This document shows, in pieces, positions 989 to 58,735 of a stretch of DNA of 64,000 nucleotides (position 1 is the stretch's first letter; the number at the start of each line of letters is the position of its first letter). Under the pieces are notes generated by a model. That model ran no database searches. It saw nothing but the letters and a program-made list of their open reading frames with translations, and was not told where the DNA came from. The position numbers and the translations under genes are program-made. This DNA is from an uncultured Methanosarcinales archaeon. Its GTDB lineage: Archaea > Nanobdellota > Nanobdellia > Woesearchaeales > GW2011-AR15. The DNA lies in the NCBI GenBank assembly GCA_964441565.1, contig CAYTWW010000010.1, forward strand, positions 3,637 through 67,636, in the 5' to 3' direction.

Positions 989-2389
989 TCATGACTTCCT
1001 GCGTAGCATCAGGAGCTTCATCTCATTCTCAGATGAGGCGTAGCGCACTTCACTGACAATATCATATCTCTCTGATATCCTCTGAAGTATGGCAGGCCCT
1101 TGTCTCGAATAAAGCTGCCGTGACACGATGATGAACGCTTCCTGGCTCTCAAGCTCATCTGCATTCTCCACTGTACCAAGAGGGAACACTCGCTTCTCCC
1201 TTGCGCAGGCATATATGTCCTGTGAGGCGAAGCAGTCAGGCATTAGATAATAGGAAAGTGGGAGGACCTCTGAAGATTCGAGAACACCGATGTCTCTCTC
1301 TCCTCTGTCCTGCAGCCTTGCGGAGACCTCATCCCATCTGTCCTTCTGCGTCCCTACATGCTGTGCGACCAGCGCTGCGATGGACAGGACGAGGAGGAGG
1401 AAGAGCATACGTGGCCTCCTGGCCAGGGGGATCGCTGCTCCAAGTATGAATGGGACTACTGCGAAGAAGGAGTATTTGCCTATGAAAAGAGGGTAGATCA
1501 AGAGCGCGAACAGGAATGGCAATATGATGGCGACCGATATCCATGAGAGTAGCATCTTCGAAGGCCTCTGCCTTGACCATGAGTAGATGTAACCAAGCAG
1601 GAGCAGGATCCCGGGTATAGATATGAGGACCCCTGAAGACAGGTCATAGAGCAGGGTGATCGGCATATGAAGGGCTGGACGGGGGATCCACGTGAATGTT
1701 GCCTGGCTGATTATCGATGGAAGCTGCAGCAGCCATGGGAGGAACAGGATGGACGGCACGGATAGCAAAAGTATCATGCGCGACTTCCTTTCGCGGGAGA
1801 TGCTGCTGAAGATGATATCGATCGATTGAGAGAGGAGGATAAGGATAGAGTACATGTGCGAGTAGAGCATCAGTGCTGAGACCAGGGTGTAGAGAGACGC
1901 ACGGGACAAGGTGCACCTTTCCTTGAGCATGATGTATGATAGGTATGATAAGGCTGACAAGAGGAATACAAGCGAATAGGCCCGCAGCTCCTGCGAGTAG
2001 TACACAAGCATAGGATTGAGCGCAGCCAAGGCAGCTGCTGCTAATCCTGCTTTCTGTCCTCCAAGCCTCTTTGCGAGCAGATAGATGACCGGCAAAAGAG
2101 AGGTCCCTATCAGGACAGGGAGGAGCCTCACAGAAGACAGGCCTGTCCCGAAGAGGCTTGTCCAGATCTTGAGCATGATGTTGAACAGAGGAGGAGTATT
2201 GTCGAGAAGACCTATCACTGCCGGCCATGGCTGGATGCTTGTGTGGAGCGTGAAAGCCTCATCAAGCCAGAGGGGTTCAGATGCATGGCCAAAGAGCCTG
2301 ATGGCCAAGGCTATCATGGTTATCAGGAAAAGGTATCTCATGACAAGATCTTTGGAGCATGAGAATAAAACAGAAGGGTTTTGGTTCAA
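989..2389 (-). CDS. GT39/GT83-type (ArnT/PMT_2-like) integral membrane glycosyltransferase
   Basis: Polytopic protein. The N-terminal region HASEPLWLDEAFTLH...GLSSVRLLPVLIGTSLLPVIYLLAKRLGG resembles dolichyl/undecaprenyl-phosphate-sugar transferases of the ArnT/PMT family. The start may be the internal Met at about 2341. Confidence 0.65.
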   Translation of the reverse strand: MNQNPSVLFSCSKDLVMRYLFLITMIALAIRLFGHASEPLWLDEAFTLHTSIQPWPAVIGLLDNTPPLFNIMLKIWTSLFGTGLSSVRLLPVLIGTSLLPVIYLLAKRLGGQKAGLAAAALAALNPMLVYYSQELRAYSLVFLLSALSYLSYIMLKERCTLSRASLYTLVSALMLYSHMYSILILLSQSIDIIFSSISRERKSRMILLLSVPSILFLPWLLQLPSIISQATFTWIPRPALHMPITLLYDLSSGVLISIPGILLLLGYIYSWSRQRPSKMLLSWISVAIILPFLFALLIYPLFIGKYSFFAVVPFILGAAIPLARRPRMLFLLLVLSIAALVAQHVGTQKDRWDEVSARLQDRGERDIGVLESSEVLPLSYYLMPDCFASQDIYACAREKRVFPLGTVENADELESQEAFIIVSRQLYSRQGPAILQRISERYDIVSEVRYASSENEMKLLMLRRKS

Positions 2390-2392
2390 AAG

Positions 2393-2917
2393 CTAGCTCA
2401 CGATTATCTGACGTGCCTGCGCATCATACTCGATGAGAATCTTCTGCTCTGCGACAATAGGCTGGAGGAACCTTATCTGGTTCTTTGATCCGCAGGATAA
2501 CGCAGATGCATCAGAATCATCGAAGCTGTTCTCGATCAGGTGGCACTGCTCCCTGTCGATGAGCATGCCTGTCAGGTCTGCCTCTGTAAGGGGAGAGAAT
2601 GCTGCTCCGGCAGGGATGATTATCTCGCTGCAGAGGATATCTGCCTCTTTCCTGCCATTCGCAGATTGGGTCCAGCATGCCATGATCATCTTAAGCACTG
2701 TGTCCTCGATATCATGGTCGATGCGCATGGCTTCCATCGTGAAAGCTTCCTGATCGCAGAAATCATCGCGTGTCTCCTGCCAGACCGCAGTCCTAAGCTT
2801 GTAGAGAGTATCGCAATACGTCTTCCTCCCTTGGTCAGTCCTGCCTGCATACAGAGTGAACACAAGGAGGATCGAGGCGATTGTCACAATGATGACGAAG
2901 ATGAGGACGACTGACAT
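2393..2917 (-). CDS. hypothetical N-terminally membrane-anchored protein (start moved to internal Met, 175 aa)
   Basis: The track ORF starts at 3067 and overlaps the upstream gene. The internal Met (MSVVLIFVIIVTIASILLVF) follows a GGTGGGGTG SD-like stretch and removes the overlap. It is the last gene of the co-oriented secretome operon. Confidence 0.5.
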   Translation of the reverse strand: MSVVLIFVIIVTIASILLVFTLYAGRTDQGRKTYCDTLYKLRTAVWQETRDDFCDQEAFTMEAMRIDHDIEDTVLKMIMACWTQSANGRKEADILCSEIIIPAGAAFSPLTEADLTGMLIDREQCHLIENSFDDSDASALSCGSKNQIRFLQPIVAEQKILIEYDAQARQIIVS

Positions 2918-2928
2918 CTCTCCCTGCT

Positions 2929-4356
2929 TCACATCCCGCACCCCACCTTGACTGTCTCTGTCACCATGTCTGTGCAGTCTGGGCAATTGGAGTATGTTAT
3001 AATCTCCTCCTGTCCGTATGGTTTTGTGCTGCATGACCCGCCTGGGTTCGCGCCTCCTCCTCCGCACAGGATGTTGCCATAGGGATCTGCTGAATAGCTG
3101 CAGGTCGAAGGTGAATAATGGTCAGGATAGCAGCACTGCGGGATCGGATAGTCCAGGGCTGTCTTCATCGAGATATGCCCTTTGATCCTGAACAAAAGGT
3201 TCGTGAATCCCTCTTCGTATACAGGTGACTGGTATTTATTATCGACACATTCCAGGGTGTAGATATATTCGATCTGCACATTGGCGGCCTTGCCCAGGGA
3301 TGTCTGGTATGGATCTTCGCCATGGCAGGTGCTTGTGCATGCTCCACATGCTGCCTCGCTCCCCTTGAATTTGCAGTCCGCTGCTCCGGCCGCGATCTGC
3401 TCGCCATCCATGGAATAGCAGTAGGGATCGTCTCTCGGCATGTATCTGCAGGTCTGGTCCTTGCAGCCATACTCGCAGTTCTCAGGGTGTCCGATATAGG
3501 GCTTGTCATCACAGGATTGGTAGTCGACCACTACCGAGCAGTCCACATTGCCGTCGAATCTGGACTCAAGGTTTGCGACAGCTGTGTCAAGGAGTCCTTT
3601 TATCGTCCAGGTGGACTCAGGATTGAATGGCTTTGGGCAGCCTCCGCATTGCGGGCAATCGCATTCCAGCGTAGTTATGACCCATGGTCCGTTGATGTGC
3701 TTGCATGTATTGTCCGGGATGCTGTACTCATCGATCCACTGCTTGATGATCCTCCACATGTACCAGTACCTGACTGGCCAGACCTCAGACACATATGAAT
3801 GCATGAATTCCCTCTCATTTTCCCCTCCTTCTATCACCAATGGGTCCCTGAGATTGGCATTGTCTGACATATAGGAACGCCCCTGCACCAGGTATCGTTC
3901 ATCGAAATCTCCTCCCACCACGCCTGATTCATCGACCAGGATCTCGATCTCTGCGAAGGCTCCTGAATCCCTGACCTTGGCACCTCCGAAGTCATAGTTC
4001 CTTGTCCTGAGGAGATAGCTGTTCGAGAAAGCCCGAGTCGAAGTCATCAGGTAGTTGTATGTGTCCAGGAAACCTGGATCATCAGGGCAGGATGCCACAG
4101 TCCAGTACTCCTTGCCTGCGCCGAATTTGGCGTTCTCGAAATCCGCGCGTGTCGATCCGGTCCTAAGGCTGTGATATGCATATTCTTTCATGACCTCGCT
4201 GTAGCTGGCCAGGCTTTCCTGCTCCTGCTTGTCCTGCTCCTGGGTACCAAGTATGCCTATGTCCTGCTGCAGGGTCACAGTTACCAAGAGTCCGAATAGG
4301 ATAAGCATGAATATCCCCGTCATCAGAGCTGAAGCTTTTTTCATGTCCCCTCGCAA
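2929..4356 (-). CDS. secreted/anchored Cys-rich protein (475 aa), pilin-like N-terminus
   Basis: N-terminus MRGDMKKA|SALMTGIFMLILFGLLVTV (KKA then a hydrophobic stretch). The C-terminal half is very Cys-rich (CDCPQCGGCPKP...CGACTSTCHGEDPY). It overlaps the upstream gene by 16 nt. Confidence 0.6.
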   Translation of the reverse strand: MRGDMKKASALMTGIFMLILFGLLVTVTLQQDIGILGTQEQDKQEQESLASYSEVMKEYAYHSLRTGSTRADFENAKFGAGKEYWTVASCPDDPGFLDTYNYLMTSTRAFSNSYLLRTRNYDFGGAKVRDSGAFAEIEILVDESGVVGGDFDERYLVQGRSYMSDNANLRDPLVIEGGENEREFMHSYVSEVWPVRYWYMWRIIKQWIDEYSIPDNTCKHINGPWVITTLECDCPQCGGCPKPFNPESTWTIKGLLDTAVANLESRFDGNVDCSVVVDYQSCDDKPYIGHPENCEYGCKDQTCRYMPRDDPYCYSMDGEQIAAGAADCKFKGSEAACGACTSTCHGEDPYQTSLGKAANVQIEYIYTLECVDNKYQSPVYEEGFTNLLFRIKGHISMKTALDYPIPQCCYPDHYSPSTCSYSADPYGNILCGGGGANPGGSCSTKPYGQEEIITYSNCPDCTDMVTETVKVGCGM

Positions 4357-6179
4357 TGAGCCCTGAACTTTTCTGCTATGTACTCGCTAATAAATCTATG
4401 CCCCTGCGTATTGAGATGTATGCCATCGTTGGCATAGAGTGACATGCAGCTGCCGTGGTCCTGGATGGCCTTTCGCACATCAATCAGCAGATATCCTTCC
4501 TCCTCTGCGAAATCCCTCTCCATCTGCGCCATCTGCTCATGGGATGGGAAGCTTCCTGAGAATCCGGATGAACTTGTGCAGACAGGGATTGTCGTCAGGA
4601 TGACTGGCTTTATGCCTTCAGCCACCATGTCCTGCGCAAGCCTCCGGTAGCCTTTGTATTCCCCCTCTGACTCGATCTGAGATGTCGCCTGCGCTATCGA
4701 GCCTACATTCATCCCGAACCACATCATGACATAGTCTGGCATCTCAGGCAGGATCGTATCGTAGAATGCCTTGCTTGGCGCAGGGATATCTGTCTCTCCG
4801 CCGCAGCTCGCGAGAGGAGCGCTGTCGATACGCTGGCATGTGTAGCCATAGGGGTCGACATGCCAGATATGGGCAGGCATGAGGGAATCAAGCTCCTCCT
4901 TGAGCGGAGTCCCGGAAAGCTCATGTCCTCTTGTTATGCTGTCTCCGAATAGCGCGATCTCTATGGTGGATCCCTGGCACACGTCCTCTGTGTCGTCCTC
5001 AGTGTCATCCTCAGTGTCGGGAGGGACGTATGCTCCTCCCTCGACGTCTGCGAATCCTCCTGGGCTGTACATGAAATCCGCCCTGCAAAGATATGCCTGC
5101 GTGCAGGGGCAGGGGAAGACCACAGTGAATGTATTCACGTCCGCGTCAGGCAGCTTGTAATCAGGACCGACCAACTGCGATGATGTTATGAGCAAGGTCC
5201 GCTCCGGGGTCAGCGGACCTCCAAGGGTCGCTGATATCTCAGCTATGGCGCTGGCTGCATCGACCAGGCTCACCATCCTCCCTCCTGTCTCCTCTGCCAG
5301 GCGTCTCGCAAGGTCCGGCTGGTACGCGCCTGCCCAGGTTACACCGTCATGGCAGACGCACCATGTCGTCGGTGTGACTGGTTCCATGAAGAACACCTGG
5401 ACACCAGCATCCCTGCATCTCTGGATTGCCTCTTCGACATATCGCTGTGTGATCTCATAATTGATCGAAGGGCACCTGGAATTCGAAACGCACCCTTCGC
5501 CGCCGCAGTTGGCTTCGTCGCTTGATATGAACAAGGCCTTGACCATATCATCGGTCCACGGCTGCACCTCTATCCCTGCATCCGACTTGACAACACGTCC
5601 GCTCTCGCAAAGGTTGCCCATCGCACCTGCCCAGTTCTCGATGTCTGTGGTGCCGCCTTTCGCAGGGTCGCAGCGCATGACATCGGGATATGATGAGGAT
5701 AGCTCGGATGTCAGGATCATCTCAGACTCTTCGCTGATCGCATCCATGATCCTCCTTATGGTTATCATGTCATCAGTCATGGTGCCGCTCGAATCGACGA
5801 TGAATGGGAGGAGAGGGATCTTCTCGAGCTTCACCTTGTATAGAGCCAGACCCCAGTTGTCTCTTCCATATATGATATCCAGCTTGTCCCTTATCTCTGA
5901 GCCTGCGTCGAACGTGATGCCGCTGCCATAGTCGACTGCATCTTGTCCATAGCATATGTATGACCCGAGCACTTCTTCGAAAGGGATGCCCTGGCTTGTC
6001 TGGTATCCGAGCGTGGTCGAGCTTATCCCCATATATTCCCTTATGCCCTCGCCCTGTGATTCTTCAGCCCTGGTCACCGCATCCACCAGTGTTCCCTGCT
6101 TGGAGATGAGCAGGAATGCGACAAGCCCTATCAGGAGGAATGTTATTGAGATCCAGATGTCGGTCTGAGCCTTTCTCAT
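4341..6179 (-). CDS. membrane-anchored vWA-like + SGNH/GDSL hydrolase fusion protein (612 aa)
   Basis: N-terminal TM/pilin-like segment MRKA|QTDIWISITFLLIGLVAFLL. Central vWA-like region. DTEDDTEDDTED acidic repeat. The C-terminus carries GDSITRG (the GDSL block) and DGIHLN (the DGxH block) of the SGNH esterase/lipase fold. Confidence 0.65.
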   Translation of the reverse strand: MRKAQTDIWISITFLLIGLVAFLLISKQGTLVDAVTRAEESQGEGIREYMGISSTTLGYQTSQGIPFEEVLGSYICYGQDAVDYGSGITFDAGSEIRDKLDIIYGRDNWGLALYKVKLEKIPLLPFIVDSSGTMTDDMITIRRIMDAISEESEMILTSELSSSYPDVMRCDPAKGGTTDIENWAGAMGNLCESGRVVKSDAGIEVQPWTDDMVKALFISSDEANCGGEGCVSNSRCPSINYEITQRYVEEAIQRCRDAGVQVFFMEPVTPTTWCVCHDGVTWAGAYQPDLARRLAEETGGRMVSLVDAASAIAEISATLGGPLTPERTLLITSSQLVGPDYKLPDADVNTFTVVFPCPCTQAYLCRADFMYSPGGFADVEGGAYVPPDTEDDTEDDTEDVCQGSTIEIALFGDSITRGHELSGTPLKEELDSLMPAHIWHVDPYGYTCQRIDSAPLASCGGETDIPAPSKAFYDTILPEMPDYVMMWFGMNVGSIAQATSQIESEGEYKGYRRLAQDMVAEGIKPVILTTIPVCTSSSGFSGSFPSHEQMAQMERDFAEEEGYLLIDVRKAIQDHGSCMSLYANDGIHLNTQGHRFISEYIAEKFRAHCEGT

Positions 6180-6868
6180 CTTATCACGACACCGCCTTCA
6201 TATGATATCAGCAGGAGATGATCGCCTTCTTCAAGCGTGAATGGCGAGACTGGACAGCTGAAGGCAGCCTTGAAGCAATCCTGCGATATGCAGAAAAGGT
6301 CACCATCATAGCTTATCGTGCCTGTCAGCAACATATGCTCCTCAAATGATTTCCTGTACCTGCAAGCCCTCTTTATCGTCCCATAGAAATCTATCTCATC
6401 TGAGAAATATGCTGTGAGCTCTGCTGTCACAGGACGGATGTCTGAAGGGCCATTGTAGAGCGAGAGGTGGACAGGGATGCTTATCTGCCTGTCTGATCTC
6501 ACTGGCGCGTGGCCGAATTCCCAGGATGATCCGACCACTTCATGGACATGCACCTTGTACAGGAATCTTTCGCTTGACGCGCACCTGACATCTCCTGGCA
6601 GTCCTGCGTACGCAGACAAGAGCGCAGGTGAGAGCAGGCCCTGGATATTTATCAGGTCAGAGCCGGGTATGTCGGAGCCTGCTGCCAGGCATTTCCCAAA
6701 TAACGTCTCAGATACGCTGTATATCTCTGCATAAGGTGAGAAATGCAGTTCCTGCTCTGCGACTCCTTTCTTATTGGACAGGATCGAAATGAGGAGGATG
6801 AATGTGAATATGACAAGGAATACGGCATAGAGCATGTTGGTTGTGAGGGCCATGGATCTCTTATGCAT
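6176..6868 (-). CDS. hypothetical N-terminally anchored protein (230 aa)
   Basis: MHKRSMALTTNMLYAVFLVIFTFILLISIL TM anchor. It has 4-nt ATGA-type overlaps with both neighbours. Confidence 0.5.
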   Translation of the reverse strand: MHKRSMALTTNMLYAVFLVIFTFILLISILSNKKGVAEQELHFSPYAEIYSVSETLFGKCLAAGSDIPGSDLINIQGLLSPALLSAYAGLPGDVRCASSERFLYKVHVHEVVGSSWEFGHAPVRSDRQISIPVHLSLYNGPSDIRPVTAELTAYFSDEIDFYGTIKRACRYRKSFEEHMLLTGTISYDGDLFCISQDCFKAAFSCPVSPFTLEEGDHLLLISYEGGVVIR

Positions 6869-7745
6869 CTTCTTTCCTCAACCTGGTCATCAGGAAGACC
6901 AGCATCAGCATGCCGACTGTCCCAAGAAGAAGTATCCTGTAGTCCACTCCTCCTGACCTGACAGGCTTATCTTCCTCCTCTTCGATGATAAGGACCTCAG
7001 CGATCTCTTCCCCGCATCTTCCTCCGCTGCAGGTGCAGTCAGTGCACGTGTCTGCCTCATTCCAGCAGTCTGATGGGCAAACCTCTCCCTTCTCGCAGTA
7101 GCCATCGCCGCAGCCTCTGAGGCAGATGCCTATGCAGCATCTGGTACCTGTGTCATCTGCATATTCCCATCTTCCGCTGCATCTCTCACCTGCCTCGCAT
7201 GGAGAACCGCCTACATCTGTGCACTTTGTGAGAGGCAGCCTGCTATCGGCATAGAGGCATGTGCCTTTGCATCCAGCGCAGTCTGCGTCCCTTTCGCTGC
7301 AATCAGGATCGCAGATGCCGTCCTCCACGAAGTCACAGTACGAGTCCTTCGAGCCTGAAGGGCAATCTGTGCAGCTGGCTGAATTCTCCCTGAGAGCGCA
7401 GCTGTCGCATGGCTCGCATATTCCATCGAAGTCGCAGAAAGAGATATTTTCCTCATGGCTGAAAGAAGGGCTGGAGATCATGATGGATGCGACACCTGAA
7501 GGCAGTGCAAGCTTCGTGCCTGTGCCAGCGTACATCATGCCGCGCGCTATCTCTGTCCCTGTCCTGTCCCTGAGAGAATACATGGAATAATCACCGTCTG
7601 GTACTCCTCCATAGAATGCGATCGAATGGAGCGCAGAATCGCTTGTGACAGCAGTTCGTATGTTCCCGTCGTACTTAAGATGGAGGATCGGCTGCGCGGC
7701 AGCAGCAGATATAAGCATGATGAACAGGAGGTATACAGGCTTCAT
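6861..7745 (-). CDS. secreted Cys/Asp-rich repeat protein with C-terminal TM anchor (294 aa)
   Basis: Sec-type signal peptide MKPVYLLFIMLISAAAAQP. Repeated DGICDPDC / DGICEPCDSC Cys-Asp modules. C-terminal TM plus basic tail (LLLGTVGMLMLVFLMTRLRKEDA). Confidence 0.6.
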   Translation of the reverse strand: MKPVYLLFIMLISAAAAQPILHLKYDGNIRTAVTSDSALHSIAFYGGVPDGDYSMYSLRDRTGTEIARGMMYAGTGTKLALPSGVASIMISSPSFSHEENISFCDFDGICEPCDSCALRENSASCTDCPSGSKDSYCDFVEDGICDPDCSERDADCAGCKGTCLYADSRLPLTKCTDVGGSPCEAGERCSGRWEYADDTGTRCCIGICLRGCGDGYCEKGEVCPSDCWNEADTCTDCTCSGGRCGEEIAEVLIIEEEEDKPVRSGGVDYRILLLGTVGMLMLVFLMTRLRKEDA

Positions 7746-10504
7746 CTTATCAGCTCCAACTGCCAGCCATAATGCTGGAGGATCCCATCAAGATAGGTGC
7801 TCTTGTCTATGACAAGATTGCTTCCGTACTCATATTGATCTGTCTCCCCATAGTTCGTGGGCGCAGGGTCGCTTATGATGATCTCATCTTCGCTGTATCC
7901 ATGGATCACGAAATAATGCCCTCCTGAATATGTCCTCCCTGCTGTGTAATCGTTCCACTCCTGCATTATCGAGAGCTGGACAAGCACATTGCCTGAATCT
8001 ATGAGGCGCTTCAGGTTGTTCCAGTTGTATTCCTTGTTGACTGAGCGGGCATCGACCGTGGTCATGTCTTCTGTCGCCGATTCCAGTTCCCACATCGCTG
8101 CTCCGCTTGGTGGATTCCCGACAAAATCCCATATCCTGCCTATGTCTACACTCCTATCCGTGAGGCCTTCGAGTGCCATCTTCAGGGAAGTAGGACCGCA
8201 TGCAGAGCCAGGCATATACGACATTGTGTACTGGCAATAGTAAGGGATCTCGACAAGCACACTGTCCGGAGGACAGCTGGCCCTGCAGCAATTGTCCCCG
8301 CAGACCTGGTCTGGATAATAATCCTGCAGTTTCTGCTTGCCTGCCCCGCAATAGGAGCAAGTCTCACCTGAAGGCTGATGCCGTTCCTCATCTGGGCATA
8401 GCCTCTTCGCCCCCAGATATTTCTGCTGCCAGGACGGCGAGTCGAGCTGTTGGATGTTTATCGGATCCCCGGCATGTATGAACTGGCCACCGCCTATGTA
8501 CATCCCTACATGATTAGGCTTCCTTGTCGTCCATCCTGTATCGAAGAATATCAGATCACCTGGCTTTAGGACATTCATGTTCGGCATGATCGAGCCGACC
8601 TGGTCATGGTCTTTTGTAGGATCATGGTCTACGACCCTCCCATCATCCCTGGCCTGGACTCCGGCTGTCCTGTATGTGAGCTTGAAAGAGTCGTCACCAA
8701 TCTCTTCCGCATAGTGTGCGTATATCCACTTTGTGAAGGCGCCGCAGTCTGTCCCGCATTTGCCTGTCGCCTGCGTCATCGATGCATAGGTTGCGTGAGT
8801 GCAGCCCATGTCTGGATATTCTACGACGACTCCGGGGCAGCTGCCATACGCCGGAGGATCAGATGCCTCATCCCATTCTGCCGAGCCCAGGCAATAAGGA
8901 GAACCCAGCGCCGACTTGGCTATCTCGACAAGCCTGCTCCCGCAAGCTCCTCCATCCTCCAGGTCCTCCGGGCATTCGACTGTGCCTCCAGCCATGGCTG
9001 CGATAAGAGCTGATGTCTTGGCGTTGTCTGACTGGAAGAGCGAAAGGAAATCCTCTGCGATCGGCTTGAAAGCGTCTCCGTAGGAGTCGCCTCCGTTTAT
9101 CCTCTTACCTACTGTCCAGAAATCCCTCGCAGCGCAGAGATCGATAAGCCCTTTGTATTCATAGAATGCTGCGAATATCTTCCCCGCGAGAGCTGGCTCT
9201 AGGGCCTTTGAAGGAGGACAATCCTGGTTGAGGCATTGCCATTGCCCGTTGCAATCGCATTCATCCGGAGATGAAGAAAGACATTCTGCACCGCAGAACC
9301 TCTCATAAGCGTCCTTGTGCGTGATCTGGATGTATCCTCTTCCTTTATAGTCGCATCCTCCCTGGTAGGGGCTGCCTCTGCATGATCCGCCGACTGTGTA
9401 GGTGCATCCTGGGCCCATGCAGTAATCTCCGTATTCCTCGACTGGGAGGAAAGTGCCACCAACTTCCTTTGTGAGGGTTGCCATCACCGCTGCCAAGATC
9501 TCTGGCGTGACAGGGATGCCTTCCTCCCTGAAGCCTGCTCCGATAGATGCGAGCGCATCTGCAAGATTCTGATTCTTCTCTTCTGAATATGTGAAAAGCT
9601 CAGGGAATATGGAAGGTTCGACAGCTGATACAGGGATGCATTCCTCTTCCTCTGCAGAGCATGAGGTGCCGTCCCATCTCTTCCCAAGCGGGCAGCAGTG
9701 CCTGCTCTGGCAGATGAGATCAGATGCGCATTCTGCAGTGCAAATGCATTCTGATGCCTGGGGCAGCTCTGGCGATACTATGCACGATCCATCGCAGCAG
9801 CGCTCTGAGCCAGGGCATGCGCAATCGTCTCCTGTGCCACAGTTCTCAAGGAGGTGAGGTTCGCAGACACCATTCCCTTCATGGCAGTCGATATCATCTA
9901 TGCAGTCGGGGTCGCATATCGCATTCTCCTCGCCGCAATCAGGATCGCATATGCCATCCACATCCAGCCTGTTGTTTTTCAGATCATGGTTGGAGTCAGC
10001 GCAATATGGATTGCAGACTCCTTCGGCTCCCCCGCAGTCTGGATCGCATATGTGCTCGATCACACAGCCAGGATCGCAGGTACCATCGCCTGCCTTGCAA
10101 TCAGCCCGCTGGGCGATCATCACGCTGTTGCTGCTTGAGAATATCCTGATCTTACCTGAATCCTCCATATAGGAATATAGGATGTTGGCATTGGGGTGGA
10201 AGAAGGTCTTTGTGACTGAGATATCCCTCGTCGTCAGATTTAGTGTGAGAGTGCTGCCATTCATCTCCAATGTATATGATTCTGCGAAAGGTACTGTGAT
10301 CGTGTGGACAGCGTCGCTTGGGTATGTGAGGGATTTCTCGACAGCCAGCTTGACCTTGTCAAGAAGATACTCAGCCATCTCAAGCTCGGACTCCCTGCTC
10401 TGCCAGTTATGTATCCCTGAGAGACTTCCGATGACTATGCCTGATACTGCGAGGAGACCTATCAAGAGAACTATGTTAAGAACTGAAGCACCCCTCTTTT
10501 GCAT
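7742..10504 (-). CDS. 920-aa pilin-signal multidomain hydrolase: Cys/Asp repeats + GH19-like lysozyme/chitinase + NlpC/P60 + C39-like peptidase
   Basis: N-terminus MQKRG|ASVLNIVLLIGLLAVSG matches the archaeal class III (prepilin) signal motif. DGICDPDC repeats. ILAAVMATLTKEVGG...GRGYIQITHKDAYERF resembles the GH19 catalytic core. CGTDCGAFTKWIY...HVGMYIGGGQFIHAGDP is the NlpC/P60 Cys-His core. C-terminal YCQY...CGPTSLKMAL is a Peptidase_C39-like motif. Confidence 0.7.
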   Translation of the reverse strand: MQKRGASVLNIVLLIGLLAVSGIVIGSLSGIHNWQSRESELEMAEYLLDKVKLAVEKSLTYPSDAVHTITVPFAESYTLEMNGSTLTLNLTTRDISVTKTFFHPNANILYSYMEDSGKIRIFSSSNSVMIAQRADCKAGDGTCDPGCVIEHICDPDCGGAEGVCNPYCADSNHDLKNNRLDVDGICDPDCGEENAICDPDCIDDIDCHEGNGVCEPHLLENCGTGDDCACPGSERCCDGSCIVSPELPQASECICTAECASDLICQSRHCCPLGKRWDGTSCSAEEEECIPVSAVEPSIFPELFTYSEEKNQNLADALASIGAGFREEGIPVTPEILAAVMATLTKEVGGTFLPVEEYGDYCMGPGCTYTVGGSCRGSPYQGGCDYKGRGYIQITHKDAYERFCGAECLSSSPDECDCNGQWQCLNQDCPPSKALEPALAGKIFAAFYEYKGLIDLCAARDFWTVGKRINGGDSYGDAFKPIAEDFLSLFQSDNAKTSALIAAMAGGTVECPEDLEDGGACGSRLVEIAKSALGSPYCLGSAEWDEASDPPAYGSCPGVVVEYPDMGCTHATYASMTQATGKCGTDCGAFTKWIYAHYAEEIGDDSFKLTYRTAGVQARDDGRVVDHDPTKDHDQVGSIMPNMNVLKPGDLIFFDTGWTTRKPNHVGMYIGGGQFIHAGDPINIQQLDSPSWQQKYLGAKRLCPDEERHQPSGETCSYCGAGKQKLQDYYPDQVCGDNCCRASCPPDSVLVEIPYYCQYTMSYMPGSACGPTSLKMALEGLTDRSVDIGRIWDFVGNPPSGAAMWELESATEDMTTVDARSVNKEYNWNNLKRLIDSGNVLVQLSIMQEWNDYTAGRTYSGGHYFVIHGYSEDEIIISDPAPTNYGETDQYEYGSNLVIDKSTYLDGILQHYGWQLELIR

Positions 10505-10527
10505 CGACTAGAGACTTTGGTTTTGAG

Positions 10528-10538
10528 GTATATAAACC
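10528..10538 (-). promoter_or_regulatory. TATA box (TTTATATAC on the minus strand) about 30 nt upstream of the 920-aa gene start
   Basis: The minus strand reads aaaggTTTATATAcctcaaaacc...ATG. It is the only promoter-like element upstream of the six overlapping genes. Confidence 0.45.
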
Positions 10539-10767
10539 TTTTGGGCGTGGAGACTAAGGAATTGTTGAATGAGATAATTGGGGTGAATAAAGTCTTGCCA
10601 ATGCATTGGAGAGGTCACTCATACAAAACGCAATTCCTTTAAGCAATCTGCCTCCGGTCTGGCGCACATCTCGACTCCTGAGAATCAAAAACGTCCAATA
10701 TAAACAAGGCAGGTGCAGACAATAGCTTCGCTTGCTGACTCTGCCTTGTCCCGCTGCTTGCTCTGTT

Positions 10768-13517: not shown

Positions 13518-15407
13518 TCAATAACTCTTAGCCCAGTATGCCCAGTACTTCGCAGCTTTGCCGCACTTCACGCACTTGCCTTCTGCCTTGGGTGCGTCGA
13601 ATGGGATGCATAGGGCTTTCACTCCTACAGTCTCTGCTTTTATCTCTTCTTCGCATGCGCCATCTCCGCAATGCTGCGCGAAGATGAGCTTCTTCTCTGC
13701 TGCTGCGAACTGTTCCCAGGTGTCTGCCTTGACAATGGATTCATCCCTCATCTTCTTTGCTTTCTCGAGGAGGTTCTGCTGGATCGCTTCCAGAAGCGCT
13801 GGGATCTCCTTGCTAAGGGAAGCGAATGGTACAGGAACTTTCTCACCAGTGTCTCTTCTCACAATCATTACCTGGCCTTTCTCCATGTCTTTTGGACCGA
13901 TCTCGATCCTCAGAGGCACACCTTTGAGTTCCCACTCATTGAATTTCCAGCCTGATGAATAATCAAGGCGGTCATCGAGCTTGATGGATATTCCATGGAG
14001 CGAGTCCCTTATCTCCCTTGCTTTGGCGAGGACTGCATCTCTTGTGTTCTCGAAGATTATCGGGACGATGACTGCCTGGATAGGTGCTGCTCTTGGCGGC
14101 ATGATCAATCCTTTATCATCGCCGTGCATGAGGATCATGGCGCCTATTGACCTTGTGCTATAGCCCCATGAGTTCTGGTACGGGTGCTTCTTCTGGCCAT
14201 CCTTGTCCAGGAACGAGATGCCGAAGCTCTTGGCGAAGTTCTGGCCGAGCATGTGGGATGTGCCTCCCTGGAGAGCCTTGCCTTGCGGCAGCATGATCTC
14301 GACAGTGGTCGTGTAATCTGCGCCTGCGAACTTCTCCTTCATCGTCTTTGTGCCTTTGATGACAGGCACAGCGAGAAGCTCTTCATAGCATTCTGCGTAG
14401 TAGCCGAGCATCTCACGGACTTCTGCATCTGCCTCCTCCTTTGTGGAGAAGACTGTGTGACCTTCCTGCCAGAGGAATTCCCTGGTCCTGAGGAATGGGA
14501 CTGCGTACTTGAATTCCCAGCGCACTGCATTGCACCACTGGTTCAGCCTGAGAGGAAGATCGTTATGAGAGCGGATCCATTTGCTGTAGGAATCATACAT
14601 GATGGTCTCAGATGTCGGGCGGACAGCGAGCTTCTCTGTGAGCTTCGTGTCGCCTCCATGAGTCACCCATGCGACTTCTGGGGAGAATCCTGCGACATGC
14701 TCCTTCTCCTTTGTGAGGAGGGATTCTGGGATGAAAATCGGGAAGTATGCGTTCTTGACTCCAGATGCCCTGAATCTTGCGTCGAGGAAATCATGTATCT
14801 TCTCCCAGATAGCGTATGAGTATGGGCGAAAGACTATGCAGCCTGATATCCTTGTGTAGTCTGCGAGCTCTGCCTTCTGGATGACCTGGGTGTACCACTC
14901 GCTCGTGTTCTCTTCCTTTCCTACACTGAGGCCGAGAGTGTTCTTCTTCTGCTCCTTCTTCTCCTCGAAATCAACTATCTCTGGGACTGCGAGACCGACA
15001 AGCTCTTCTGCATCCATCTGGATAGTCTTTGTGAGGGATGCTGAGAAGCATATGCTCTTCTGCTTCAACAGCTGCCTGTCATAGACAAGCTTTCCGCCTG
15101 TGAAGCCGAAAGGAGGGACTGCTCCTGGCTCTGCGCCTGTTACTTTTCGGACTTCATCAAGGGATGCGAGCGAGAGCTTCATGTCGAGGAGCTTCTCAAG
15201 CTTCTGCCTGTTCATGCTCCTGTCGCCAGGACCGACCGCTAGGATGAACTGTCCGTCATCTGACTTGAAGAGCATGGATTTCGCGATCTGCTTCTCGTCG
15301 CAACCGCATTCCTTTGCCTGCTCCTTGCATGTCCTGACTTCTGCATGCTCCATGAGCTTGTATGTCGCCTTGTTATCATCGAGGAAATGTATCATGTCCA
15401 TCTTCAT
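13518..15407 (-). CDS. proS: prolyl-tRNA synthetase, archaeal/eukaryal class II type, with N-terminal YbaK/ProX-like deacylase domain
   Basis: The first ~150 aa resemble YbaK/ProX (ILAVGPGDRSMNRQKLEKLL...GAVPPFGF). The remainder is archaeal-type ProRS. It overlaps proC by 4 nt. Confidence 0.85.
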   Translation of the reverse strand: MKMDMIHFLDDNKATYKLMEHAEVRTCKEQAKECGCDEKQIAKSMLFKSDDGQFILAVGPGDRSMNRQKLEKLLDMKLSLASLDEVRKVTGAEPGAVPPFGFTGGKLVYDRQLLKQKSICFSASLTKTIQMDAEELVGLAVPEIVDFEEKKEQKKNTLGLSVGKEENTSEWYTQVIQKAELADYTRISGCIVFRPYSYAIWEKIHDFLDARFRASGVKNAYFPIFIPESLLTKEKEHVAGFSPEVAWVTHGGDTKLTEKLAVRPTSETIMYDSYSKWIRSHNDLPLRLNQWCNAVRWEFKYAVPFLRTREFLWQEGHTVFSTKEEADAEVREMLGYYAECYEELLAVPVIKGTKTMKEKFAGADYTTTVEIMLPQGKALQGGTSHMLGQNFAKSFGISFLDKDGQKKHPYQNSWGYSTRSIGAMILMHGDDKGLIMPPRAAPIQAVIVPIIFENTRDAVLAKAREIRDSLHGISIKLDDRLDYSSGWKFNEWELKGVPLRIEIGPKDMEKGQVMIVRRDTGEKVPVPFASLSKEIPALLEAIQQNLLEKAKKMRDESIVKADTWEQFAAAEKKLIFAQHCGDGACEEEIKAETVGVKALCIPFDAPKAEGKCVKCGKAAKYWAYWAKSY

Positions 15408-35681: not shown

Positions 35682-35787
35682 TGGCTCGGCCGGGATTCGA
35701 ACCCGGGTCTCAGCCTCGAAAGGGCTGAATGATTGATTGTCCACAACACCTCTTTCGAGGAGCTGCTCCGGACTACACCACCGAGCC
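35682..35787 (-). tRNA. tRNA-Glu (anticodon UUC) with a ~30-nt non-canonical intron in the D-loop region
   Basis: Acceptor GGCUCGG/CCGAGCC plus discriminator A. T-arm CCGGG-UUCGAAU-CCCGG. Anticodon arm CAGCC-CUUUCGA-GGCUG. 4-nt variable loop. An extra AGCAGCUCCUCGAAAGAGGUGUUGUGGA(CAAU) is inserted after GUAGUCCGG relative to archaeal tRNA-Glu. No encoded CCA. An oligo-T follows. Confidence 0.6.
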
Positions 35788-35835: not shown

Positions 35836-36395
35836 TTAGCGTCTGAATGCCTGGGTCAGGAGATCGGATCTCGTCACGACACCCATTGATGATCCCTTGC
35901 CGCGGACAATGATGATCGGATACTGCCTAAGAAGAGCTGCGATAGTCTCAGTATCAGTCTCCGGAGGAATGATAGGAGGAGCTCCTTCCATGACTTCTGA
36001 TACTACCGCATCTTTATCAAGACCCGACATAAGAGATTCCAGGAGGATGCTCTCACTGACATAGCCGAGCACCTTCCCACCTTCAGCAACAGGAAGCTGT
36101 GAGATCCCATGCTTGCGCATCACTTCGATAGCATGTTTTATATCGCTACCTGGACTTATGGTTATCATGTTCTGGTTCATGATATCCCTAGCTTTTATGC
36201 CAGATTTCTGCTCAAGCTGCCTCAATGTAGAGAAAAGTTTCATGGCATTGGTATAGGAAGGATCAAGCTTCCCAGATTCGACCTTAGCGATGAGAGACTG
36301 GGAGACACCGCTCCTCGCCGCCAGGTCAGATTGCGTAAGTCCAAGCTTCTTTCGAAGCAGCTTTATCATCAAGAGGTCATCCATCAAACCAACCA
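35836..36395 (-). CDS. HTH (XRE) + CBS-pair domain regulator (start moved to internal Met MVGLMDD)
   Basis: [29 protein letters not shown] followed by two CBS motifs. The sequence AAAACATATATATT lies 10-20 nt upstream of the chosen ATG. This suggests a TATA box and a leaderless mRNA. Confidence 0.7.
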
Positions 36396-36505
36396 TAGAG
36401 ACTGAATATATATGTTTTACCCTAATTCGGATAAGAATATTTCTATCAACAAGCTTTTTATTGGATCCGCAAGATGGACATCTAAAAACAAAGGAGGCGG
36501 TCAAT
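36396..36505. promoter_or_regulatory. divergent promoter region between the HTH-CBS regulator and metK (TATA on one side, SD AAAGGAGG + TTG start on the other)
   Basis: Seen directly: atatatat adjacent to the regulator ATG. aaaggaggcggtcaaTTG precedes the MetK reading frame. Confidence 0.45.
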
Positions 36506-37693
36506 TTGAGCGTATTTAGGAAAGGAAAAGTGTTTTTCACATCTGAGAGCGTCGGCCCAGGACATCCAGACAAGGTCTGCGACCAGGTCAGCGATGCGAT
36601 ACTTGATGCAATCTACAAGGAAGATCCGAGCGCAAGGGTCGCGATCGAATGCCTGACAAAGACAGGTTCACTGATGGTCGCAGGAGAAGTCACGACTTCG
36701 ACCTATGTCGAGATCCAGGATATCGCGAGGAAGACAATCAGGGATATCGGGTATAGCGACCCCTCCTTCGGATTCGACGGCGATACATGCGGAGTATGGG
36801 TCAATATTTCCAAGCAGAGCCCAGATATCGCCCAGGGGGTGAATGAGTTCGAGAAGCATGAGCAGGGAGCAGGAGATCAGGGCATGATGTTCGGATTTGC
36901 CACAAATGAGACAAAGGAACTGATGCCTCTCCCGATAATCATGGCACACAAGCTTGTCCACAAGATAACTGAGCTCAGGGAAGGAAGAGTGCTGAAATAT
37001 CTAAGGCCTGATTCAAAGTCGCAAGTCACTGTCGAATACCATGATGGCAAGCCGAAGAGGATAGACAATGTCGTAGTCGCTGTGCAGCACAATCCAGATG
37101 TAGAGCTTGATGTCCTCAGACAGGATATCATCAAGCAGGTCATAAGACCTATCTGCGGCGATTGGATAGATGATAAGACCCAATTCTATGTGAATGGCAC
37201 AGGAAGGTTCGTCGTCGGAGGACCAGTGGCTGACGCTGGTGTCACAGGAAGGAAGATCATCGTCGACACATATGGTGGCATGGGAAGGCATGGAGGAGGA
37301 GCCTTCTCTGGAAAAGACCCTTCCAAGGTCGACAGGAGCGGTGCATATTTCGGAAGGTATGTCGCCAAGAACATCGTGGCTGCAGGGCTTGCTGATGTGT
37401 GCGAGGTGCAGGTCTCATACTGCATCGGAGTGGCAAAGCCCATGTCTGTGCTTGTCGAGACATTCGGCACAAGCAAGATTCCTGAGGAGCAGATAGCAAA
37501 GCTTGTCGAGAAGAACTTCGATTTCAGGCCAGCTAGGATCATCGAGCACCTGAAGCTGAGGAGACCTATCTACAAGAAGACTGCTGCCTATGGACACTTC
37601 GGACGTGACGATCCGGATTTCACCTGGGAGTATACTGACAAGGCAGCAGAGCTCAGGAAGCAGGCAGGTCTGCCTGTGAAACTACCGAATTAG
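36506..37693 (+). CDS. metK: S-adenosylmethionine synthetase, bacterial/eukaryal MetK type (TTG start)
   Basis: [26 protein letters not shown] is the MetK N-terminal signature. The ORF-track frame begins 72 codons earlier, but an SD plus TTG gives the canonical N-terminus. Confidence 0.9.
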
Positions 37694-39265: not shown

Positions 39266-39438
39266 TTGTCAGTATATTAAAACGTATACCTGTATATAAA
39301 TATTTTGCTATATTGACGCCAGGGAAAATGTGATCCTCCCTCCCGATAATATCCTTCATTGCTATCATCAGGAATTAATAAAGGTTTTGAATGGGAATCG
39401 AGACCAAGTAGAAATAAAGAAGATAAAATCGGGAAGAG

Positions 39439-40167: not shown

Positions 40168-40293
40168 ATCATATCCTCCAAATACTATGTAAAAAATATA
40201 TCAGTATACTAAATCACACACTGGTATATAAAGATTATGGTTAGATAGGGTCCAGGATTCTAGACACTCTGGACAGTCGGACTACAAGGAACA

Positions 40294-46863: not shown

Positions 46864-46917
46864 TCTTTGTCCATTTTTGTATTCATATTTTTATATAACT
46901 GATTCTCTCGCAGCCAG

Positions 46918-56989: not shown

Positions 56990-58003
56990 GTGATAATGGT
57001 TGGGCAATTCGAATTCAAGGAAGCTGAGTCAATATTGGCTGCAGAGGAAGCAAGATTGTATACTGACCTACTTGGTAGAATCAGCGATACTCCGGCCTCT
57101 GAGAAAGCGGGTATTGAGCTGATATGCACAGGAAATGCCGGCGGCGTGGACAATGTCGTCAAGGCAAAGCCTTGCGGTGCCTTCAGAATCCATCACGGCT
57201 CTCACAACATCCAGATTGATCCCGGACAGGGCACCCTTAGGCTGCTGAAAGACCTGGGAATCGATGCTTATTCAACTACTGACATCATAGTGACACATGC
57301 ACATAATGATCATTCCCAGGATCTGGCAGGGTTGGTTGGAGCAGTATCGCAGATAGGCTTGACTCAGAGACCATATCGTATTGTAGTCAATCCGACGCTC
57401 GTCTCCTATGCCAATACTGAACTAGTCAGGCATGGTTTTGTCCTCCCTTCATTCTCATGGCAAGGAGGGCACGTGGATGTCCTATGGCATGAGACTATGG
57501 ACATAACCCGATATGATGGCAAGCAGATCCAGACCGTGCCAGAAACACAGATAGGAGACATGACCATCCATCCTACCAGATGTATCCACGGGGAACCCTA
57601 CACAATCGGACTGATCATTGATTCACCGCTTGGAAGGATCGGTTACACAAGCGATACAGAATACTTTCCAGGTATCGAAAAGCAATTCGAAGGCTGTGAT
57701 GTCCTATGGGCAAACCTGAATACAATCAACCTAGGATCATTCCAGGGTGAGCAGGCAGGACATGTCAGGAATCACCTGGGATATAAAGGCCTTTGCCAGC
57801 TGATCGAAGCGGTCAGGCCAGGCAATGTGTTCGTGTCTCATTTCGGATCACAGATACTCAGCAGGAGAACACAGATAGAAGAGCTCCTGCGTGATAGGTT
57901 CGCGAGCAGCCATATGAATATCTACTGCCCAGACAACGGAGAGGCATTCACATTCGACAGCATGGCAGGCAGGCCGACAGTAAAGAATTATCTAAGCGGA
58001 TGA
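56990..58003 (+). CDS. metallo-beta-lactamase-fold hydrolase
   Basis: VTHAHNDHSQD (the HxHxDH motif). It overlaps the next gene by 4 nt. Confidence 0.7.
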   Translation: MIMVGQFEFKEAESILAAEEARLYTDLLGRISDTPASEKAGIELICTGNAGGVDNVVKAKPCGAFRIHHGSHNIQIDPGQGTLRLLKDLGIDAYSTTDIIVTHAHNDHSQDLAGLVGAVSQIGLTQRPYRIVVNPTLVSYANTELVRHGFVLPSFSWQGGHVDVLWHETMDITRYDGKQIQTVPETQIGDMTIHPTRCIHGEPYTIGLIIDSPLGRIGYTSDTEYFPGIEKQFEGCDVLWANLNTINLGSFQGEQAGHVRNHLGYKGLCQLIEAVRPGNVFVSHFGSQILSRRTQIEELLRDRFASSHMNIYCPDNGEAFTFDSMAGRPTVKNYLSG

Positions 58004-58734
58004 AAGCAGCAATACTTGCAGGTGGAAAGGGTACACGTCTGAGAGAGATAACAAAAGATCAATATCCTAAGCCGATGGTCCCGATAATGCTTTACGGACA
58101 GGAGTATCCTATGCTTGAGTTCATCCTGGAGAACTATGTATCACAGGGGATAAGGGATTTCATCCTTCTCACAGGTTACAAAGGGCAGGTAATCGTAGAC
58201 CACTTCGGTGATGGTTCCAGGTATGGTGTCAATATCTCGTACAGCGATGGAGGGGAGGAGATGAATACTGCCGCAAGGCTCAGGCTTGCATCAGCATCGC
58301 TCTCTGGCGAACCATTCATCGTGAGCTGCGGAGATGTCTACCTTCCTGTAAAGCTTGATGATATGATTGATAGCTTCCCTGGATCTTCCTTGGTCCATCT
58401 AGCCACATATCCTGCACAGCTGGATGATACTATCCCAAATGTCGCGTGGGATGAAGATGGATTCGTGGTTGCGTATTCAAGAGGAGGCATCAGAGGACAA
58501 CGGACAGGTATAGAAGCCGGTGTCCTTATGTTCAAGCCTGAAGCATTGGACAGGATACCGCAAGGAATAGATGCATCGATAACAGAACTACTCTATGGCC
58601 AACTGATCCAGACCAGGCAGATCACATGCCACCCGACCGATGTAAGGTTCTACGATGTGGGGACTCCACAAAGACTGAGCAACTTCAGTGCTTATGCACA
58701 ACAAGAGCATATACGACCGTTGAGCCTGAGATAA
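58000..58734 (+). CDS. sugar-1-phosphate nucleotidyltransferase
   Basis: MKAAILAGGKGTRLREIT is the NTP_transferase signature loop. Confidence 0.75.
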   Translation: MKAAILAGGKGTRLREITKDQYPKPMVPIMLYGQEYPMLEFILENYVSQGIRDFILLTGYKGQVIVDHFGDGSRYGVNISYSDGGEEMNTAARLRLASASLSGEPFIVSCGDVYLPVKLDDMIDSFPGSSLVHLATYPAQLDDTIPNVAWDEDGFVVAYSRGGIRGQRTGIEAGVLMFKPEALDRIPQGIDASITELLYGQLIQTRQITCHPTDVRFYDVGTPQRLSNFSAYAQQEHIRPLSLR

Positions 58735-58735
58735 T

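Follow-up and report, generated by a model that had tools for sequence, protein, structure and literature searches.

Organization of the operon and its promoter

The 64,000-nucleotide stretch of archaeal DNA analysed here, referred to as the window (contig CAYTWW010000010.1 of GenBank assembly GCA_964441565.1, positions 3,637 to 67,636 of the forward strand), contains on its minus strand six co-oriented, overlapping genes, P1 to P6, which span positions 2393-10504 and form the operon that is the subject of this report. The initial annotation of this DNA described six co-oriented genes with overlaps of 4 to 16 nt. The co-orientation and the overlaps were confirmed, but the larger figure was not, since the genes overlap by either 4 or 8 nt at all five junctions. 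As read from the DNA, P1 and P2 overlap by 4 nt in an ATGA, as do P3 and P4, and the overlap of P2 and P3 is 8 nt. The P4/P5 junction is also an ATGA with a 4-nt overlap, given the P5 ATG at position 4344, which agrees with the Joint Genome Institute (JGI) call of 471 amino acids for this gene; the 16-nt overlap arises only with a P5 start at the TTG farther upstream, at 4356. The P5/P6 junction is a GTGA with a 4-nt overlap, which requires that P6 start at the GTG at 2932. The same gene calls are found on an identical JGI contig of 172 kb, Ga0255811_10958028, which was assembled from three metagenomes, and the operon is therefore not an assembly artefact. The products are rich in Cys, as had been noted before: Cys makes up 2.6-8.8% of the residues in the six proteins, as opposed to 1.0% in a set of 18 further proteins encoded in the window.

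A single TATA box had been placed at about position 10530, and the octamer TTTATATA is indeed found at 10529-10536 on the minus strand, 24 nt upstream of the P1 ATG and preceded by an A-rich stretch resembling the B recognition element (BRE). It is the only copy of the consensus that serves the operon. Against an expectation of 0.49, the window contains five copies of the octamer, none of them within the operon. The other four are at 939-946, 39293-39300 and 40225-40232 on the minus strand and at 46890-46897 on the plus strand, and all five sit approximately 20-45 nt upstream of a start codon. This suggests that TTTATATA is a sharply defined promoter consensus and that most mRNAs of the host are leaderless or have short leaders. 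The distance of 24 nt between the TATA box and the P1 ATG likewise implies that the transcript of the operon is leaderless or has a very short leader.

The number of genes in the transcription unit is probably seven rather than the six initially described, all six of which are present. A gene for a GT-C glycosyltransferase similar to PMT_2/Agl23 (989-2389, minus strand; 8.3e-12 with Pfam PMT_2, and 4.6e-11 with TIGR03663, which is below the cut-off of that model) starts 3 nt after P6, or 51 nt after it if an internal ATG is the start, and lies upstream of the next TATA box at 939-946. Because of this 3-nt gap and the absence of a TATA box between P6 and the glycosyltransferase gene, the latter is probably the seventh gene of the operon. 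In the closest orthologous locus, L009, an SRP54 gene follows the cassette instead of the glycosyltransferase gene.

P1, a pilin-like module joined to three enzyme domains

P1 (920 amino acids; 7742-10504) is a modular protein in which a class-III-like leader and a pilin-like module are followed by a Cys-rich spacer and by GH19-like, NlpC/P60 and C39-like domains. Residues 1-135 (10100-10504), with the leader MQKRG|ASVLN, are the predicted type IV pilin-like module. An AlphaFold2 model of residues 1-140, computed with an alignment of 11 sequences, had a mean predicted local distance difference test score (pLDDT) of 83.8 and consisted of a helix (residues 3-60) followed by a seven-stranded sheet. 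As modelled, the module would have the "lollipop" shape of type IV pilins and agrees with the pilin fold, in which a long helix at the N-terminus packs by its C-terminal half on an antiparallel sheet. The spacer (residues 136-297; 9614-10099) contains five copies of a CDPxC/CNPYC repeat and is conserved in homologues. Motifs of this kind (CDPDC, CDPGC or CNPYC) are also present in P2 (7260-7410) and in homologues in every related locus.

The initial annotation assigned a GH19-like lysozyme/chitinase domain to this protein, and the assignment holds for residues 298-507 (8984-9613), for which a profile built from 12 sequences reached GH19 endolysins and chitinases in the PDB (9ms7, 5.7e-6; 8p8e, 9e-5; 4ok7, 5e-3; and the chitinases 1dxj, 3w3e and 4tx7). 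These matches are partial and centred on the motifs. The domain is approximately 50% identical to one that recurs in DPANN proteins beside M23, SLT, amidase_3, C40 and SGNH domains. Three Glu residues (E50, E59 and E60 in domain numbering; E346, in a K-E context, and E356/E357 in P1) are invariant in the 12 sequences, and the GRGxIQ(I/L)T and INGG motifs, present in P1 as GRGYIQITH and INGG, align with those of GH19. The DPANN domain resembles the phage GH19 endolysins (9ms7 from PWe2, and 4ok7) and the plant chitinase 1dxj in having GRGxIQ(L/I)T..NY, INGG and an upstream acidic pair. It differs from these enzymes in having a Cys-rich insertion, in being always part of a larger surface protein, and in giving no Pfam match at E <= 0.1, including to Glyco_hydro_19 (PF00182). 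Judged from the profile and the motifs, the domain is GH19-like.

The two peptidase domains proposed for P1 were both recovered above the curated Pfam cut-offs. Residues 581-701 (8402-8764) are an NlpC/P60 (C40) cysteine peptidase (2e-15; 57.1 bits with a cut-off of 23) with the catalytic motifs DCGAF (Cys587), NHVGMY (His665) and FIHAG (His677) in place, and the nearest solved relatives of this part of the protein are bacterial cell-wall DL-endopeptidases (1e-9 in the PDB), including LytE, CwlO and MepS. Residues 752-881 (7862-8251) are a cysteine peptidase of the Peptidase_C39_2 type (1e-11; 46.1 bits with a cut-off of 24), with Cys769 (SACGPT), His863 (GGHYFV) and Asp879 (ISDPA). The bacteriocin-processing C39 peptidase that is fused to ABC transporters was rejected as an identity for this region, because PF03412 scored 16.7, under its cut-off of 22.

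P4, a second modular protein

P4 (612 amino acids; 4341-6179) has the N-terminus MRKA|QTDIW and a small N-terminal module, followed by a region resembling a von Willebrand factor type A (vWA) domain and by an SGNH esterase. The esterase, which had been predicted, was identified at residues 408-601 (4377-4958) as an SGNH/GDSL hydrolase (Pfam Lipase_GDSL_2, 6.6e-16 at residues 410-595, 59.8 bits with a cut-off of 32.9) with blocks I (FGDSIT), III (FGMNVG) and V (NDGIHL) in place. The vWA domain that had been predicted is at present a probable assignment for residues 119-321 (5217-5825). In its favour, this region has a FIVDSSGTM motif of the metal ion-dependent adhesion site (MIDAS) type and a second motif, FISSDEAN, and a profile of five orthologous regions retrieved from the PDB almost only domains of the vWA fold (integrin I/βI domains and the vWA domain of the anthrax receptor), in alignments that place the MIDAS strand and the second Asp motif (D-S-S-G-T and SSDE) in the correct order. 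However, the E-values of these matches were marginal (0.014 at best and up to 1), Pfam VWA had no match in P4, and an hhalign comparison with the Pfam-positive VWA proteins of the related locus L014 aligned only the first (MIDAS) strand, with a probability of 31%.

P2, P3, P5 and P6

Pfam and NCBIfam contained nothing that matched P2, P3, P5, P6 or their orthologues above cut-off. P2 (294 amino acids; 6861-7745) is the most Cys-rich product (8.8% Cys), has the CDPDC repeat in common with P1, and is the only product lacking a pilin-like N-terminus. It was thought that every product has an N-terminal anchor, which is true of the other five. P2, in contrast, has a Sec-type signal peptide (ending SAAAA|QP), a C-terminal transmembrane anchor and a basic tail. 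P3 (230 amino acids; 6176-6868) has the class-III-like N-terminus MHKRS|MALTT, and a word-indexed search for homologues found one relative only. P5 (471 amino acids; 2929-4344), with 5.3% Cys and the class-III-like N-terminus MKKA|SALMTG, is 44% identical to its orthologue in L009, and its N-terminus has a faint match to the minor pilin ComGG (pilin_ComGG_2, E 0.025, below cut-off).

P6 (179 amino acids; 2393-2932) has the N-terminus MKQG|EMSVVLIF when translated from the GTG at 2932. We prefer this start because the alignment with the closest orthologue, that of L009, begins exactly at this codon (181 residues aligned at 40% identity) and because P6 then regains a basic leader (MKQGEMSVV...). 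The alternatives, a 224-amino-acid open reading frame (ORF) from 3067 and the 174-amino-acid product of the gene caller, are by this alignment probably both wrong. The conserved C-terminus of P6, ILIEYDAQARQIIVS, is common to the larger P6-like proteins of related loci and is present in a looser form in small pilin-like proteins there.

Pilin-like N-termini of five products

Three N-termini had been found to fit the archaeal class III/prepilin pattern, and the pattern is real, but the number is too low, since five of the products (P1, P3, P4, P5 and P6) have a class-III-like N-terminus. A leader with Lys or Arg at position -2 and Gly or Ala at -1, followed by approximately 20 hydrophobic residues, is present in P1 (KRG|A), P4 (RKA|Q) and P5 (KKA|S), and the mean hydropathy of the 19 residues after the leader is between 2.5 and 3.2 in all five proteins. 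When orthologues from six loci were compared, the leader consensus was [KR][KR]G[ADE]T[VL]xN for the P1 family, [KR]K[AG]Q for the P4 family, KK[GA]S for the P3 and P5 families, and [KR][GA][DEA] for the P6 family. Thus, at overall identities of 20-45%, five families that are otherwise unrelated have all retained Lys/Arg at -2 and Gly/Ala at -1, the two positions on which archaeal class III signal peptidases are reported to depend (PMC3387779).

A common globular domain for the five families was considered and rejected, because in hhalign comparisons their mutual likeness was limited to the first 30-40 residues. Sets of pilins typically show such likeness restricted to the N-terminus. When the window was scanned in all six frames, the only ORFs that start with the [KR][GA]+hydrophobic pattern were P1, P4, P5 and one small unannotated ORF (at 52304, 108 amino acids).

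The host, and conservation of the cassette with exchange of cargo

The genes of the window include those for the archaeal exosome (Rrp4/41/42), SBDS, proteasome alpha, Orc1/Cdc6 and an archaeal-type prolyl-tRNA synthetase, and among the best 120 matches in a search with the isoleucyl-tRNA synthetase every named relative was Woesearchaeota, Nanoarchaeota or "archaeon", with a top identity of 73%. On these sequence grounds, the host is therefore placed in the Woesearchaeota-type DPANN archaea.

It had been suggested that synteny be examined in related genomes, and the order P1-P2-P3-P4-P5 was found at six other DPANN loci (L004, L005, L006, L008, L009 and, more distantly, L014), with P6-like genes in L004, L005, L006 and L009. 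The locus in L009, a metagenome-assembled genome of Nanoarchaeota, has exactly six genes, encoding proteins of 737, 328, 256, 385, 477 and 181 amino acids that are 24-48% identical to those of the window. The chromosomal neighbours of the cassette differ in each genome, while its internal order is constant.

Members of the P1-module family were collected by an exhaustive hidden Markov model search of 1.84 billion representative sequences. The module was found in only 85 proteins, always at the N-terminus, and the named carriers are Nanoarchaeota, Woesearchaeota and Aenigmatarchaeota. The family members that were looked up are annotated as "hypothetical protein" or by their cargo domain only, and current annotation therefore misses the scaffold. 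The cargo itself is highly variable: in 78 carriers of the P1 module it belongs to twenty Pfam families, including papain-like C1, C25, reprolysin-type, M23, SLT, M64, C39_2, transglutaminase-like, GH5 cellulase, GH39, SGNH and NlpC/P60 domains. Cargo is also exchanged between members of the cassette. For instance, the vWA-type region is on P4 in the window, L008 and L009, on a P6-like protein in L004, L005 and L006, and on a P3-like protein in L014, where two proteins in the P3-like position have Pfam VWA matches, and the SGNH domain, part of P4 in the window, is found on the P1 orthologue in L004. From their sequences, P1 and P4 thus have the architecture of modular pilins as defined by Raynaud et al. 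(2021), with an N-terminal module fused to an independent functional module that varies among relatives.

The P1 module also occurs by itself, in proteins of 125-133 amino acids encoded in runs of small pilin-like genes. One such gene is the last in a row of seven small genes whose N-termini are similarly of the KG|hydrophobic kind, and one distant stand-alone relative matches DUF7266 (3.9e-8), a family without an assigned function for which we found no paper in the literature. In L012 (4215-7570) and L014 (6990-9972), the modular hydrolase genes are directly preceded, on their upstream side, by runs of six or seven small genes (118-226 amino acids), most of whose products begin with a KG|hydrophobic N-terminus. 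These resemble a group of small pilin subunits, which the cassette of the window lacks. Furthermore, the P5 orthologue of L005 (13777-15618) has a Pfam Cohesin match, and a protein with Dockerin_1 (7730-8320) is encoded just upstream of the cassette in the same locus, a hint that additional enzymes might be recruited to the complex in the manner of a cellulosome.

Proposed function of the operon and alternative explanations

The interpretation that we favour is that the operon encodes a surface-assembled, type IV pilin-like set of proteins that displays a kit of lytic enzymes and an adhesin and acts on bacterial peptidoglycan, and we hold this to be somewhat more probable than all other possibilities taken together. 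We infer that the proteins could work as follows. The seven genes would be transcribed from the one TATA promoter, and translational coupling through the overlapping starts and stops would favour a fixed stoichiometry. P1, P3, P4, P5 and P6 would enter the membrane by their N-terminal hydrophobic helices, and a signal peptidase of class III encoded elsewhere would cut off the short basic leader after the conserved Gly or Ala. The helices exposed in this way could bundle into a short heteromeric pilus, a pseudopilus or a tip complex, like bacterial minor pilins. P1 would be a modular pilin in which the Cys-rich spacer holds a GH19-like glycan cutter, an NlpC/P60 endopeptidase for stem peptides and a C39-like peptidase off the cell, and P4 a modular pilin with a vWA-type adhesion module and an SGNH esterase. 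P2, which would be exported by Sec and anchored at its C-terminus and which has the same Cys repeats, might be an accessory or base component, and the GT-C glycosyltransferase may glycosylate the exported subunits. The substrate is likely to be bacterial peptidoglycan, either where the archaeon touches a bacterium that serves as host or prey or in the debris of cell walls.

Several results weigh against this interpretation, and most of them speak for the strongest alternative, in which the products are ectoenzymes tethered to the membrane, with accessory proteins, on Cys-rich stalks. They would be type II membrane proteins whose signal anchors stay uncleaved, and they would form no filament. 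A positive-inside N-terminal helix is also the look of an ordinary signal anchor, so that basic residues followed by a hydrophobic helix are a generic feature. P3 has Ser at -1 (KRS|M) and P6 has Gln at -2 (KQG|E), and therefore two of the five leaders are imperfect in this genome; the orthologues of these two proteins carry KRG|D, KKA|E, KKG|S and KKA|S. Moreover, Ser at +1, which is found in the P3 and P5 families, lies outside the FlaFind-type pattern. No pilin or archaellin model of Pfam or NCBIfam matched P1-P6 at E <= 0.1 apart from the ComGG match of P5, which is below threshold, and a Foldseek search of the PDB with the P1 module retrieved nothing significant and no pilin, only insignificant matches to sliding clamps. 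The AlphaFold2 model of P3, for which a single homologue was used, had a pLDDT of 36.8 and allowed no fold to be assigned. The scan of the window gave no obvious major pilin or further pilin-like gene outside the operon. As to the substrate, GH19 enzymes can also cut chitin, and SGNH and C39-like enzymes are broad in their specificity.

The machinery for a type IV filament is also missing from the surroundings of the cassette, as the signal-anchor alternative would have it. Genes for a prepilin peptidase, a PilB-like ATPase or a PilC-like platform protein (Peptidase_A24, T2SSE and T2SSF) were found neither in the window with approximately 18 kb of additional contig (approximately 82 kb altogether) nor within 10 kb of seven related loci. 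This is not decisive, because archaeal class III substrates are often encoded apart from their machinery (bioRxiv 10.64898/2026.04.22.720090). In four related loci the pilin-like genes are adjoined by a gene for a conserved polytopic membrane protein of approximately 700-760 amino acids, with 8-9 predicted helices and two soluble loops of approximately 140 residues (the genes are L004:6825-9107 on the minus strand, L005:15702-17867, L006:117-2252, L012:2132-4234 and L014:4868-6976). Its profile matched nothing in the PDB, Pfam or NCBIfam, and the window does not encode it. From its topology, one may guess at a divergent PilC/FlaJ-like platform protein. A 559-amino-acid protein of L006 was rejected as a candidate ATPase, since it has no Walker A motif. 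We consider tethered ectoenzymes without a filament to be unlikely, but to be the only alternative of real weight.

Much less probable is that the enzymes are autolysins with which the archaeon remodels its own envelope during growth or division. Enzymes of the NlpC/P60 and GH19 types do serve as autolysins in bacteria, as the PDB relatives LytE, CwlO and MepS illustrate, and the operon lies amid housekeeping genes (RNA 3'-phosphate cyclase upstream; a small membrane protein, a helix-turn-helix protein and MutS downstream). However, in homologues of the P1 scaffold, peptidoglycan hydrolases are replaced by papain-like, gingipain-like, reprolysin, cellulase and GH39 domains, and with such varied protease and cellulase cargo a general degradative or attack role therefore fits better than the upkeep of one wall polymer. 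In addition, no gene for murein or pseudomurein synthesis was seen in the window, and a survey concluded that most archaeal peptidoglycan hydrolases spare the wall of their producer (PMC12352652). Finally, a viral or mobile-element module for lysis or entry, integrated in the archaeal chromosome, which the phage endolysins among the nearest solved relatives of the GH19-like domain and the slightly higher G+C content of the operon region (0.52-0.545 versus approximately 0.49-0.50 in the remainder of the window) might bring to mind, is very improbable and was rejected because tblastn with P5 and with the first 300 residues of P1 matched none of 50,697 phage records and IMG/VR yielded no relative of the P1 module, and there is furthermore no integrase, capsid or terminase gene nearby and the cassette keeps its internal order while its chromosomal neighbours vary between genomes.

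Comparison with known systems

The pilin-like set proposed here invites comparison with the minor-pilin complexes found at filament tips, such as GspH-I-J-K of type II secretion systems, and FimU/PilVWX with the vWA-containing PilY1 of type IVa pili (discussed in PMC8179133). As in these complexes, approximately five co-encoded pilin-like proteins are alike only in their N-terminal helix, and one large member or partner has a vWA domain. In contrast, no sequence homology to such complexes was detected in the DPANN proteins except for the faint ComGG match of P5, the search for adjacent major pilin or machinery genes found none, and the enzymes are covalently fused to the scaffold.

Modular pilins are known from bacteria; for example, PilB of Streptococcus sanguinis has a vWA module and PilC a lectin module, and other pilins bear peptidases (PMC8179133). 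They are thought to sit at the filament tip together with other minor pilins (PMC8179133). The DPANN proteins resemble them in that a small N-terminal module carries a functional module (vWA, peptidase) and in that the cargo varies widely among relatives. The bacterial proteins have the N-methylation signature IPR012902 with Glu at +5, whereas the DPANN leaders are of the archaeal type (Lys/Arg at -2), and IPR012902 is not expected in archaea. The DPANN system further differs in that its scaffolds are without a database model, several of them are encoded together in a fixed cassette, and as cargo they carry a set of several enzymes for cutting peptidoglycan.

In archaea, non-pilin proteins with class III signals depend on the pilus machinery (PMC3387779; bioRxiv 10.64898/2026.04.22.720090), and a 2026 census of archaeal type IV filament systems describes such signals on substrate-binding proteins (bioRxiv 10.64898/2026.04.22.720090). 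The cassette is like the archaeal bindosome in this respect, as non-filament proteins with a prepilin-type leader are encoded apart from the machinery and a function is added to a type IV filament machine, but the bindosome cargo consists of solute-binding proteins encoded beside ABC transporters, whereas that of the DPANN cassette consists of hydrolases. These papers report no hydrolase cargo; the words "hydrolase", "enzyme" and "peptidoglycan" do not occur in the census, and no such DPANN cassette is described there (bioRxiv 10.64898/2026.04.22.720090).

Archaeal enzymes directed at bacterial murein have precedents. Woldo and Danwoldo of Halogranum are secreted archaeal peptidoglycan hydrolases, and archaeal enzymes of this kind were demonstrated to be able to kill bacteria (PMC12352652). 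GH23 lytic transglycosylases have been proposed for predatory Woesearchaeota, and some Woesearchaeota have been suggested to degrade murein (PMC9723730). The interpretation favoured here agrees with this suggestion and with the killing of bacteria by archaeal hydrolases. The statement in the initial annotation that such cargo is unusual for an archaeon is thus overstated, as the host is a DPANN archaeon and genes for peptidoglycan degradation have already been reported in this group (PMC9723730); its description is otherwise essentially correct, and its broader interpretation is supported in part, as far as sequence analysis can reach. The DPANN operon would have in common with Woldo, Danwoldo and the GH23 enzymes that archaeal enzymes are aimed at bacterial murein, and it differs in that the latter are single proteins of other catalytic families, with Sec or Tat signals or none, while the operon is a pilin-like multi-gene cassette. 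The survey of archaeal hydrolases found a known signal peptide in only 32% of its proteins and, in the passages searched, makes no mention of pilin-type or class III signals (PMC12352652).

Our search of the literature found no described pilin-hydrolase system of DPANN archaea and no case of modular-pilin grafting in archaea. We regard the cassette as an unannotated, conserved and DPANN-restricted form of modular pilins, or functionalized type IV filaments, with swappable enzymes. The principle of the modular pilin, catalogued so far in bacteria, would hereby be extended to archaea with enzymes as cargo. In addition, a 2016 census of archaeal type IV pili was unable to identify the cognate pilins of nanoarchaeal secretion ATPases (PMC4858521), and the scaffold families described here are candidates for these pilins.

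The possible role of the cassette is best seen in light of the biology of its carriers. Most DPANN archaea are uncultured, how they hold or exploit other cells is little understood, and the host domain of Woesearchaeota is debated. Here, a defined and conserved gene set ties a scaffold for display, of the pilin type, to an adhesin and to enzymes that cut peptidoglycan, in proteins that can be expressed and assayed, and from this combination bacterial partners or prey are therefore predicted. The cassette is thus a concrete candidate for how archaea of the symbiotic type attack or feed on bacteria. A further-reaching proposal, which we put forward as speculative and doubtful, is that the cassette represents an unrecognized DPANN apparatus similar to type IV filaments, made of scaffold families without a database model, equipped on its tip or stalk subunits with swappable lytic enzymes and a vWA adhesin, and linked in several relatives to the ~700-amino-acid membrane protein as a possible platform, a canonical ATPase gene being absent from the vicinity, which in this genome would be used for the contact-dependent breaching of bacteria and would amount to a parasitic or predatory organelle acting across domains.

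Other features of the window

A few further features of the window are recorded here. An element at 35682-35750 (minus strand) was called as a tRNA by Rfam barely over threshold (30.2 versus 29 bits), while ARAGORN predicted zero tRNAs in the whole window; the element may be an atypical or degenerate tRNA. The prolyl-tRNA synthetase (13518-15407, minus strand) has a fused N-terminal editing domain of the YbaK/ProX type (tRNA_edit) before its archaeal-type catalytic core. The gene at 36290-37693 (plus strand) encodes an S-adenosylmethionine synthetase of the bacterial type in this archaeal genome, with matches of 1e-41 to 1e-68 to the N, M and C domains of MetK and an N-terminal extension of approximately 80 amino acids. 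An 836-amino-acid coiled-coil protein that is extremely rich in Lys and Glu and is without a Pfam match is encoded at 48008-50518 (plus strand), and the end of its gene overlaps the start of a gene for a CorA magnesium transporter. At 56990-64000, and continuing in L011 to 14019, there are co-directional genes with overlapping stops for a metallo-β-lactamase-fold hydrolase, a nucleotidyl transferase, a GH113 protein, a DUF2334 protein and a 783-amino-acid GT2 protein, a cluster that looks like an operon for exopolysaccharide synthesis and modification.

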